Assembly: GCA_965219445.1 (NCBI GenBank)
Contig: CBDCNQ010000002.1
Coordinates: forward strand, 672,001 to 736,000
Direction of reading: 5' to 3'
DNA: 64,000 bases
DNA from: Longimicrobiales bacterium
Lineage (GTDB): Bacteria > Gemmatimonadota > Gemmatimonadetes > Longimicrobiales > Gaopeijiaceae
Of the stretch, positions 20,305 through 25,018 are shown in pieces; position 1 is the stretch's first letter; each line of letters opens with the position of its first letter. Both the position numbers and the translations under genes were made by a program. The notes below the pieces were generated by a model. The model had not been told where the DNA came from. It ran no database searches and saw only the letters and a program-made list of their open reading frames with translations.

Positions 20305-20336
20305 GCCCTGCGCCCGCCCGACATTGACTGGTCGCC

Positions 20337-20390
20337 GAGTGCGCTGAGCCAAGGAGTGCCCTGAGCAAAGGACGAGTGCCCTGAGCCAAG
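20337..20390. repeat. 3 x 17-bp direct repeat GAGTGCSCTGAGCMAAG
   Basis: 20337-20353, 20354-20370, 20374-20390; intergenic. Confidence 0.85.
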
Positions 20391-20412
20391 GAATGGAGAG
20401 GAGGGAATACAG

Positions 20413-21549: not shown

Positions 21550-22652
21550 TTCGCGGGTCGAGGGAAAACCGACATCTTTCCGAGGTCGTTCGAGGGCGTC
21601 AGCGCGCGAAAGTCGCCTGGTTAAGGCGGGCGATGGGGTCGGGCATACTAGTTCCCCATCCGCTGGCGAAGCTCCTCGAAGAAGTTGGTGACCACAAAGA
21701 ACCGTTCCTCTGACACCTCGCTCTCCAGGTCTGCGACTTGGCTGAGCATCTGTGGAACCACCAGGCGGTCCCCATCAGGATGGAGGTCTGAGGCGGGTCG
21801 GAAGTAGCCCGCCGTGAACAAGGAGTCCCTGGATAGCACCACCGGCACGGGATCTCGTTGGATGCGGGCGGCAAAGAAGGTGTCGTCGACTCTCCCAGCC
21901 TCCCTTGCGGTCCAGTAGTAGATGGTGTTGCCGTCTGGTGACCATCGGGGGAACTCACCTCCGCCCTCCGACACCAGTGTCCGTTCACCGGCTTCAGGAA
22001 AACTCCGAATGTAGATCTCCGGTGTACCCGTCTCGTCAGACCCATAAGCGGCCAGGGTCCCATCCGGTGAAACCACGATTTCGTGAAGGTTGGCCTCCTG
22101 CTCCAGGTAAGCCTCCGCCCTCGGGCTGTCCGGGTCCGAGAGATCGAGCATCCACAGATCGGTTGGCGGCGGCCCCCACTCGAACACGATCAGCGTGTCG
22201 CTCGGCCACTGCGTGGGGAGTTGAGCGCCGGGAAGTGTGATGAGGAGTTCCGCAGGCGTGTCGTTGTCCAACCTCTTCACGAACAGATCGGATCCGTCGG
22301 TTCCTTCCCGCTGGGAAGAAAACACGACACGGGTCCCATCCGATGAAGTCACAGGTCCGACATTGCTCCCTTGGAAAGTAAGCTGTCTCGGCGTCGCCCC
22401 CAGTTCTACGTCGAAGGCGAAAATGTGAGGGTCTGCTTCGCCGTCCGGGCGACTCTCATAGACCACCGACCGACCATCAGGAGACCACATCACGTCACGG
22501 AGGCTTCGTGGAGCTAGGACCAGAGGCTCTATATTACCCTCCAGATCCACGACGAGGAGCCGTTGTCCGCTACCCGTACCAGTGGTAGCAAGAGCGCCTG
22601 CTCCATACACCAGAGTCCCGTTCTGCGAGACCGCGAACCGGGCGTCGAAACC

Positions 22653-22698
22653 GTCCATAGACGAAACCGTCCATAGACGTCCATAGACGTCCATAGAC
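22653..22698. repeat. 4 copies of GTCCATAGAC (22653, 22669, 22679, 22689)
   Basis: Read directly; copies 1 and 2 are separated by GAAACC, a duplicate of the left target flank. Confidence 0.95.
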
Positions 22699-22699
22699 G

Positions 22700-22957
22700 A
22701 CCGGGGGCAAGCCGAGGCTTGGCAGAATATCGAAGATGGGTCAGCGCGATCTCAGGCGGCTCCTGATCACGGGCGCCATGACGATTGTCCACCACGCGAT
22801 CCGACGCGGCGAGACGACGGATCCGTGGCTAGCCAGGATGTTGGCACGCAAGCCCAGGATGCTGGTCGCGGTAGCGCTGGCGAACAGGATGGCGCGCATT
22901 GTCTGGGCGCTTACGACGAAGAAGGAGATCTATCGGGCTCACGCTGCCGCCGCCTGA
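22700..22957 (+). pseudogene. IS110/IS1111 transposase C-terminal fragment
   Basis: TGGKPRLGRISKMGQRDLRRLLITGA..WLARMLARKPRMLVAVALANRMARIVWAL; RuvC-like N-terminal domain absent. Confidence 0.9.
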
Positions 22958-23230
22958 CCGGGCGAAAGGAGGGAAGCCGAGAGGAGGACAGCTGTTGGGG
23001 ATGTGAGCAGGTCGGAGGACAGGTAAGGGCAAACGGTCAATGAGACGGGGTCGAGAAAACCAGCAACCGAACGGAGAGCACCGAAGCTCGCGTAACCGAT
23101 ATGGACTCGGCCCGCGTATCTCCATACAGGCCAGCGGCCAACTGAGTTGCCGCACCAACAGGCCGGATAGACGACAGCACCTGACCACATGCACCGAACC
23201 GTTCGAAGAAAAGCTTGCATCAAAGGGGGC
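22958..23230 (+). ncRNA. Putative bridge RNA/seekRNA region (boundaries approximate)
   Basis: Non-coding region downstream of tnp, as in the IS1111 subgroup; contains ACCGAACGG (target match) and ATAGACG (donor-end match). Confidence 0.65.
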
Positions 23231-23250
23231 GTCCATAGACGTCCATAGAC
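23231..23250. repeat. 2 tandem copies of GTCCATAGAC at the IS right end
   Basis: Read directly. Confidence 0.95.
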
Positions 23251-25018
23251 GTTCGGTATCGAAACTCCGTCGAATAGAGTGACGGGATCTCCGACGACTT
23301 CGCCCCGACGAGCGTCGAACGCTACGGCCCACAGGGTCCCTGAAACGTCGGCGTACAGCAGGTGCCCTGTCTCTATGTATGCGGCGTCGAGGGCGCCTGC
23401 CCGAACTACTCGCACCGAGTCCGTATCCAAGTCGAGGATCAGAGTTGAGAGAGCTACGGGGTCCGTGAAGATGACGGCCCCACCTCCGGGGAGAAGCCTC
23501 GGGTTACGAACTGATGTCGTAGGGTCTAGGAGAGGCTGGGGATCGCCCCCTGTTTCAGGAACGCGGTAGAGGCCCCGACCTCCGGCTCCGGTATGTGTGA
23601 AGACGACGGTTCCGTCGTCCCCCCAATGGAGACCAGCCACACGAGCCGCCGGGATGTCGGTCACGGTCTGCGGGGCACCTCCTGAGAGCGCCACTCTTTG
23701 AATGGACCCCTCGCCGGCGACGCCGAAGACCAATGACTCTCCGTCCGGTGAAAAAGAGGCGAAGGCGGTGCCTTCGGTTCCCGGTATAGGCCGAAAGCCT
23801 TCCTCATCGGCATTGCGCCAGTAGAGCGGCCCTCCACTGACCAGAGCGAACCGCAGGCCATCTGGGGATACCAGAATATCGCCAGAAGGGGTAAGCGAGA
23901 GGTCTCCGAGGTCAACCGACGCGAGCGTAACCGGAATTGCGGCGCGGGTCTGTTCCAGCCCCAGAGGGCGAGGGCCACGAAGAGGGCAGTGGTCGTCGCA
24001 AAGGCGACCGTCAGTCGATTCCAGGGGCCAGCCACCGTAGCAGGTCCTTGCGCGGCTACTGCCTCCGAGGTCGAGGCCGTTACGGATGTCCGAGCCCGAG
24101 CCTTGTACGTGAACCTCTCGTCCGCGAGCGCCGCAGCGAACTCAGCCGCGCTCGTGAAGCGGTCGGCGGGTAGCTTCTCCAGCGCCTGAGCGAGTGCATG
24201 GCCGACATGGGGTGGCACGGTCCTGCGCTCACTCGTGATCGACGGTGCATCCATCGTGAGGATCTTGACCAGCACGGCTTGGGCGGTTGTCGCCGAGAAG
24301 GGTGGCTGCCCGGAGAGCATCTCGTACAGCACACAGCCGAGCGCGTAGACATCAGACCGTGGGTCCACGTCCCTGTCGCCTGTGGCCTGCTCGGGACTCA
24401 TGTAGTGCGGTGTGCCCAGGCTGAGTCCGGTCTCTGTGATGCGCCCAGCACCCGCCTGAGCCACGGCCAACGCAATACCGAAGTCTGCTACGAGCGGCTC
24501 GCCCTGAGCACTCAGGAGGATGTTGCCCGGCTTGATGTCGCGGTGGACGACGCCGTTCTGGTGTGCGTAGTCGAGTGCGCCCGCCACCTTCTGCGTGATC
24601 GCCAGTGCGTCCTCCACACCGAGTTGCTTCTCGCGGTCGATCCGCTCCCTGAGTGATTCACCTTCGATGTGGGGCATCACGTAGAAGAGGAAGCCATCCG
24701 CTTCGCCCGAATCGAACAGTGGAAGGATATGCGGGTGAGTCAGGTTCGCGGTCGTCTTGATCTCGGCCAGGAACCGCTCGGCCCCTACCACCGCGGCCAA
24801 CTCGGGCTTCAGCACCTTGAGGGCTACGTTTCGGTTGTGTTTCAGATCCTTGGCGAGGAAGACCGTCGCCATCCCGCCTTCGCCGAGTTCACGCTCAATG
24901 GCGTAGCGGCCTTCGAGGGCTGCGTTGAGACGGGCGACGGGATCAGTCATGGCGGACAAGATGCGTCTAAGGGGTGTGGCGCGGCAAGGATCCTATCCTC
25001 ACCGATCTACTGAGGTGG

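Follow-up and report, generated by a model that had tools for sequence, protein, structure and literature searches.

The non-coding region at positions 22958-23240 of the window, the 64,000-nucleotide stretch of a Longimicrobiales genome analyzed here, is with high confidence the predicted guide-RNA gene of an IS1111-group element, and the original prediction of a bridge RNA or seekRNA at this place was correct in substance. The arrangement of its ends suggests, with less certainty, that the copy in the window arose as a mis-joined, left-end-free partial circle; this appears probable.

The region forms the 3' non-coding end of an IS1111-group element that occupies 22699-23240. Stop codon and crossover are 283 bp apart, and this length is similar in homologues. 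The transposase gene (tnp) is present as a remnant that begins at a C^G (a caret marks a joint or crossover) inside the codon before Thr257, with the stop codon ending at 22957. The remnant is identical to full-length copies at C2:226182 and C2:609693 of the same genome. Over the shared part, identity is 100% for both copies, and each has the complete 341-aa gene and the left end. Full-length copies match PF01548 (DEDD RuvC, E 1.7e-13) and PF02371 (Tnp, E 1.3e-23), and D10, E53, D90 and D93 align with the DEDD tetrad of IS621. Thr257, in the motif GLVPRQHTTGG, aligns with the catalytic serine of IS621 and ISCro4 and is a threonine in 157 of 161 loci. The threonine was considered as something new and rejected as such, given that a TG variant of the S(t)G motif already appears in the covered portion of PMC11187229; a literature search found no test of a threonine nucleophile.

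In the two C2 copies, the left end reads GATGGAGTGGACGCCCCC, or GATGGAG-TGGACGCCCCC (an 11-bp inverted repeat preceded by G). The left end predicted originally, ATGGACGCCCCC, was off by one base, the actual repeat being 11 bp. The window copy lacks this left repeat, which the two identical copies elsewhere retain. [quoted passage not shown] The right end is missing from the copy at C2:226k by deletion (C2:227444) and from the copy at C2:610k by inversion plus deletion, with an inverted truncated tail at C2:610746-610963. Because neither C2 copy keeps its right end, the 92%-complete assembly holds no intact element. The nearest homologues, at 85-88% protein identity, lie in metagenome-assembled genomes (MAGs) of Longimicrobiales and Gemmatimonadota, followed by Alphaproteobacteria MAGs at 76-80%. 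The genome also contains several other IS110/IS1111 families; the two IS110 Pfam domains are matched 38 and 40 times, one family gives about 25 near-identical scores, and a more distant IS1111 element with 62% protein identity lies at C5:441720.

The remnant is part of a 598-bp insert (22653-23250) in a minus-strand gene for a Ser/Thr kinase-PD40 protein. Joining 22652 to 23251 gives GAAACC^GTTCGGT and restores the host reading (..GVSIPNGFDARF..). The rejoined site aligns without gaps to four loci, at three distinct places, in two genomes of the same genus. Because the rejoined flanks align gap-free to these uninterrupted relatives, the target is exact and carries no duplication, as is characteristic of IS1111 elements, and the rejoined target given in the original prediction is confirmed. 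The extra GAAACC in the locus is part of a 16-bp aberrant duplication. Elsewhere in the window, a 17-23-bp repeat occurs in three copies at 20336-20395, between two genes. The features of the locus are as follows.

21648-24959, minus strand: interrupted host gene, Ser/Thr kinase domain and PD40 beta-propeller, its frame shifted by the 598-bp insert.
22647-22652, plus strand: left target arm GAAACC (host DNA), crossover after 22652, 5/6 identical to the left-target guide GTAACC.
22653-22698, plus strand: scrambled left junction replacing the left end, with the 10-bp right-end unit GTCCATAGAC at 22653, 22669, 22679 and 22689 and a second GAAACC at 22663.
22699-22957, plus strand: final 86 codons of the IS110-family transposase gene, left as a 3' remnant, with a PF02371 match.
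23225-23240, plus strand: right end, made up of the 11-bp subterminal inverted repeat GGGGGCGTCCA and TAGAC, with the crossover following 23240.
23241-23250, plus strand: extra copy of the 10-bp right-end unit, supported by one contig of sequencing run X1.
23251-23257, plus strand: right target arm GTTCGGT (host DNA), 7/7 complementary to the right-target guide.

Guides were examined in 160 homologous loci, 112 of which have an inverted-repeat pair; removal of 3 mis-parsed loci and 8 with short flanks left 101 elements in 19 guide families. For covariation scoring, one element was drawn per family, and the right guide was taken as the best of three registers for cognate and non-cognate comparisons alike. 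The guides of the window element and a target-like string are listed below.

23066-23074, plus strand: right-target (top-strand) guide ACCGAACGG, complement of CC^GTTCGGT.
23092-23098, plus strand: left-target (bottom-strand) guide GTAACCG, overlooked in the original prediction.
23120-23125, plus strand: candidate right-donor guide CTCCAT, complement of the left-end bases ATGGAG; only CCAT is consistent across homologues.
23167-23173, plus strand: left-donor guide ATAGACG, which at the DNA level also directly repeats the right end located 68 bp downstream and marks where the 68-bp mini-element on contig C3 begins.
23197-23205, plus strand: AACCGTTCG, target-like by coincidence and no guide, showing no covariation.

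The left guide matches its own left flank at 4.50 of 5 positions, as compared to 1.25 for the flanks of other families, and the right guide matches its own right flank at 5.04 of 6, as compared to 2.47 for non-cognate flanks. Neither value was reached in any of 5000 shuffles, although the right guide matches at 5/6 or better in only 70 of the 101 elements. The top-strand match lies 5' of the bottom-strand match and covaries with the target. Both C2 copies are flanked by GGTGTAACC, which points to GTAACCG (23092-98) as a guide. Flanks within this genome read GTAACC (twice), GAAACC and GCAACC on the left and GTTCGGT and GTTCGTT on the right, and an empty paralogue of the C2:226k site reads GTGTAAAC^GTTCGGT. 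Another genome (G049) holds twelve copies (L066-L074, L077-L079) whose target guides are almost those of the window element; all of them match at 4-6 of 6 positions in the left arm and only 6 reach 5/7 or better in the right arm, so the bottom-strand guide dominates in these copies.

The five strings quoted originally all stand where they were placed (ACCGAACGG at 23066-23074, TATGGAC at 23100, TCCATA at 23121, ATAGACG at 23167-23173 and AACCGTTCG at 23197), and they fared differently. Two covary with target or donor, CTCCAT (which overlaps TCCATA) is nearly invariant, and two are no guides. The 9-mer at 23066-74 changes with the target among homologues and is unpaired in the consensus fold, and thus withstands the test set for it at the outset. 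ATAGACG, noted as equal to the right end, is borne out as the left-donor guide: it equals the right end in 92 of 101 elements, across seven matched variants, C/T crossover base included. The reading of AACCGTTCG as a guide did not hold (4.71 of 9 positions for cognate pairs, 4.76 for shuffled ones). The string AACCGTTC occurs at that position in 0 of 15 homologues sharing the left guide of the window element, and it is carried by L006 and L187, which have other guides. TATGGAC, taken as an echo of the subterminal repeat, instead closes the stem of the target loop. CTCCAT at 23120-25 complements the first bases of the left end, ATGGAG; the match is 6/6 in the window element and in only 24 of 101 elements overall, and the ATGG core is found, invariant, in 98 of 101.

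This poor covariation of the right-donor guide would suit a seekRNA that reads the target only, in which the donor matches are dispensable and protein recognizes the ends at their subterminal inverted repeats. Published work lends that idea some weight: in the portions covered, an 82-nt short RNA is enough for ISEc11 movement (PMC11187229), and a target-loop-only RNA is the main species for CazIS110-1 (10.1101/2025.10.25.684509). However, the left-donor guide follows the right end through all seven variants, and the stem of the donor loop is conserved, which makes a target-only RNA improbable and favors a guide RNA with both a target and a donor loop.

The predicted loops and the promoter element discussed below are as follows.

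23048-23113, plus strand: predicted target-binding loop, with an 8-bp stem (23048-55/23106-13), CCA/TGG (23060-62/23102-04) and a hairpin (23076-79/23086-89).
23129-23164, plus strand: predicted donor-loop stem GGCC/GGCC with inner hairpin, from the consensus fold.
[quoted passage not shown]

Folding 47 sequences to a consensus gives the 8-bp stem and an inner hairpin as well as a second domain, and leaves the guide columns unpaired. Paired cells make up 98.5%, and 11 of 22 pairs show two-sided changes, among them 7 of the 8 pairs of the outer target-loop stem. Slid controls, in which relatedness is retained, are 20-46% paired. Folding of the single sequence is no better than that of shuffles (z -0.62 for 22958-23232 and z -1.31 for 23044-23185) and pairs three right-guide bases with the left guide; an Rfam scan returned nothing near threshold. 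Of the checks proposed originally, then, the covariance-model search yielded 3 weak matches far below gathering scores and the single-sequence fold was unexceptional, whereas the consensus fold supports the loops. The support for the predicted structure is comparative and does not come from single-sequence folding.

These features allow a mechanism to be proposed by analogy with IS621 and ISEc11. A two-loop guide RNA would be transcribed from a circle-junction promoter and bound by the DEDD recombinase. It would pair with the target via 23066-74 and 23092-98 and with the ends of the element via 23167-73, probably also via 23120-25, and would steer the recombinase of the element to sites resembling GTAACC^GTTCGGT. 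Cleavage and exchange of the top strands would follow, with Thr257 at the position of the catalytic serine. A promoter spanning the joined ends is likely from comparative data, with TTG located 17 bp before a junction-spanning xAxGAT hexamer in 87 of 101 homologues. A promoter and terminator scan of the linear DNA at 22900-23300 returned none.

The position of the crossover was assigned from the junctions. At the left junction, the sequence always continues with the G of the element, whereas the base after the right end varies (G in 91, A in 8 and C in 2 of 101 elements), which places the crossover between C (or T) and the next base. This assignment is in line with IS621, whose top strand is cleaved after the core according to the covered part of PMC11208158. 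The base before the crossover is C or T and follows the guides. The original proposal of a CG-core programmable recombinase stands as far as a guide-matching IS1111 system is concerned, but not in its fixed CG core: roughly a quarter of homologues have T in place of C, and in 10 of 101 a base other than G follows the right end. The right guide occupies more than one register relative to this point. Among confident cases, 29, 20 and 8 lie at offsets 3, 2 and 1, plus one at offset 0, and an alignment-free parse of loops of equal length places 20, 13 and 8 elements in the three registers, with 51 of 101 unclear or unparsed. Two registers occur among the sites of a single element (L067 and L072 versus L074-L079). 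From these sequence comparisons, we infer that the bottom-strand guide fixes the crossover.

The window copy departs from a complete element at both of its ends. With A for GAAACC and B for GTCCATAGAC, the order of the locus is A B A B B B, then the 3' part of tnp and the non-coding region, then B B and GTTCGGT, and every join in the array is a C^G. Assembly artefact could in principle produce such a pattern, given that short tandem repeats beside a multi-copy element assemble poorly. However, the left array is spanned with 0 differences and 0 gaps by one contig each of runs X1, X2 and X3 (one study, which may include the source), although these contigs extend only 28-29 letters past the last join, and one X1 contig covers 23213-23700, including the right duplication, with 0 differences. 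Artefact is therefore very improbable, all the more as a comparable array on contig C3, itself known from the assembly alone, is broken up by a 1.57-kb element that occurs in 17 near-identical copies, and as a pattern search for similar right-end duplications gave matches in 4 of 29 other genomes (one of them L039 again, one a nested insertion).

Deletion alone cannot produce the window copy, because right-end units B lie upstream of the tnp piece; we infer that it is not a simple deletion. The order of the array can be explained by a left-end-free circle that carries an array of B units and is opened between two of them. In this scheme, the right end would have joined other C^G sites, one 10 bp upstream in its inverted repeat and one inside tnp, yielding a left-end-free partial circle with tandem right-end units. 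Recombinase supplied in trans would then have cut this circle open at the boundary of two units and placed it into a site matching the guides, and one further join would have duplicated 16 bp at the left junction.

Parallel products occur elsewhere. On contig C3, a left-end-free unit of 68 bp runs from the C^G of the donor-guide DNA to the right end and is present in three copies. This array (C3:77695-79468; L003, L193) is inserted between GCAACC and GTTCGTT, both of which match the guides, and its middle unit is split by the 1.57-kb element, with GAACC on either side. A parallel monomer in genome G058 (C39:37458-37536; L194/L178) begins at the donor-guide site with no transposase nearby. It follows GTAAGC, the left guide of related elements, and is succeeded by a 10-bp inverted-repeat duplication like that in the window; a parent element with matching left guide was not found in G058. 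A pattern search for monomers starting at donor-guide DNA, which misses cases with A two bases before the join, gave matches in 3 of 30 genomes, of which the present genome (G000) and G058 remain. The third, in G031, was rejected as a complete element with a mutated guide. Across 301 genomes of the order, the same pattern returned only G000 and a match identical in coordinates and sequence to the false one in G031. Tandem joins of right end to donor guide like those on C3 were found in 0 of 29 other genomes. Both the C3 mini-element and the G058 case fit the half-match recombination described in 2026 preprints.

Right-end duplications are seen in 3 of 102 complete homologues (15, 24 and 144 bp), and the 144-bp duplication (L085:2374-2660) joins the right end to the element's own left-target-guide DNA. 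Eight-base right-flank matches inside tnp of L037, L060, L061, L063 and L065 were taken as chance and not as duplications. The aberrant right-end joins with a visible partner number nine (three in the window, one on C3, and those of L039/L176, L177, L178, L085 and L114), and in 9 of 9 the partner is a Y^G that matches the crossover base of the element concerned, as compared to a CG frequency of 0.11; because the searches were anchored on the right end, the 3' arm of these joins is in part predetermined by the search design.

In a different account of the scrambled ends, the guide reading is right and the arrays come from replication slippage, or from microhomology repair at CG after a recombinase nick. 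CG is common here (frequency 0.11; C is followed by G in 36% of cases), a duplicated 10-bp unit can expand by slippage, and two partner sites in the window show no guide match beyond C^G. Moreover, the breaks that removed the right ends of the C2:226k and C2:610k copies fall at sites other than C^G and are left unaccounted for by the half-match model. Nevertheless, the tandem joins stop exactly at the crossover of the element with no flank included, and the partner becomes T^G in L114, a T-type element. The left-end-free pieces of the window and C3 sit in guide-matching targets with the correct arms on both sides, so an insertion step is needed. Slippage or repair is consequently rather unlikely, and the mis-joined partial circle is the explanation preferred for the window copy.

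Two further groups of elements were observed with links to sites within related elements. One, a lineage with guides for GAGGCC^G(G/C)ACATAC (L086/L087 and L183; G031 C1:1922900-1924800), sits in the donor loop of the guide-RNA gene of a sister element; its own donor loop differs (CAGGCC^GGATAGAC), and other G031 copies occupy looser sites. The other (L110 and L179; G055) has guides for GGAGGC^GTCCATAG, the C^G that sister elements carry within their right inverted repeat, and L179 is inserted exactly at such a site.

A broader proposal, which we advance tentatively as possible though somewhat short of probable, is that IS1111-group elements carry, in the guide-RNA gene, an inherent substrate for their own enzyme. 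Because guide DNA copies the top strands of donor and target, the right end could recombine with donor- and target-guide DNA. Such recombination would yield left-end-free mini-elements of 67-144 bp with one repeat, which insert at guide-specified sites. The same proposal holds that the bottom-strand guide sets the crossover, that the top-strand guide may slide by up to 2 bases with respect to it, and that some sister lineages may have reprogrammed their guides to hit these weak points.

With this guide RNA, a mechanism described in 2024 gains a further family, in which many natural reprogrammings can be read from genomes. The side results weigh more for builders of bridge-recombinase tools. 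The natural products point to one-sided joining in the IS1111 group, and a guide produced from DNA inside the same cell presents its own half-sites to the enzyme. A top-strand guide that tolerates a shift of 0-2 bases would widen the off-target space. These observations also bear on the need for the subterminal inverted repeats and the left end: if the guide gene is indeed a substrate of its enzyme, the left end and the repeat pair would be dispensable for integration.

Several of these products have counterparts in the literature, cited here for the portions of each source that were covered. One-sided (half-match) reactions have been shown for IS621 (bioRxiv 10.64898/2026.08.31.748434), left-donor-anchored tandem units and re-inserted partial circles have been reported in genomes (10.64898/2026.08.14.744561), partial circles and MITEPpu9 are described for ISPpu9 (PMC12288879), and copy-out by top-strand transfer has been proposed (10.1101/2025.10.25.684509). 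As in the half-match, tandem-unit and ISPpu9 reports, the right end is joined to other core dinucleotides, partial circles re-insert and tandem units are anchored at the left donor. Those reports, however, cover the IS110 group or IS110 at large, and the term IS1111 is absent from the main text of 10.64898/2026.08.14.744561. The units reported there are at least 50 bp, whereas units of 6-30 bp also occur here, and two of the partner sites found here are guide-coding DNA. In the portions of text covered, we found no report of guide-coding DNA as a partner site, nor of a sliding top-strand register or bulge.

The closest relatives by architecture are ISEc11, ISPa11, ISKpn4 and ISPst6, the IS1111 seekRNA elements of Siddiquee et al. 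2024 (PMC11187229, covered in part). Shared with them are the non-coding region downstream of tnp, the 11-bp subterminal inverted repeats with unequal terminal extensions, the lack of target duplication, a top-strand match 5' of the bottom-strand match, overlapping matches and the TG variant of S(t)G. In contrast to those elements, the target here is GTAACC^GTTCGGT, the donor loop covaries, and the window copy has been truncated and lies between right-end arrays; that the top-strand guide uses three registers finds no mention in the portion of that text covered. The architecture is likewise shared with the IS1111-group bridge RNAs in the covered part of PMC11208160. Likeness to IS621 and ISCro4 (PMC11208160, PMC11208158 and PMC13626964, in part; PDB 8wt6, 9t56) extends to the DEDD RuvC and Tnp domains (E 4e-8 and 3e-10), the target and donor loops and a crossover beside a short core. 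Unlike in those two systems, the predicted RNA lies at the right end with the order of the guides reversed, Thr257 aligns with the catalytic Ser241, and only one base (C or T) is common across the crossover, the following G being a preference.
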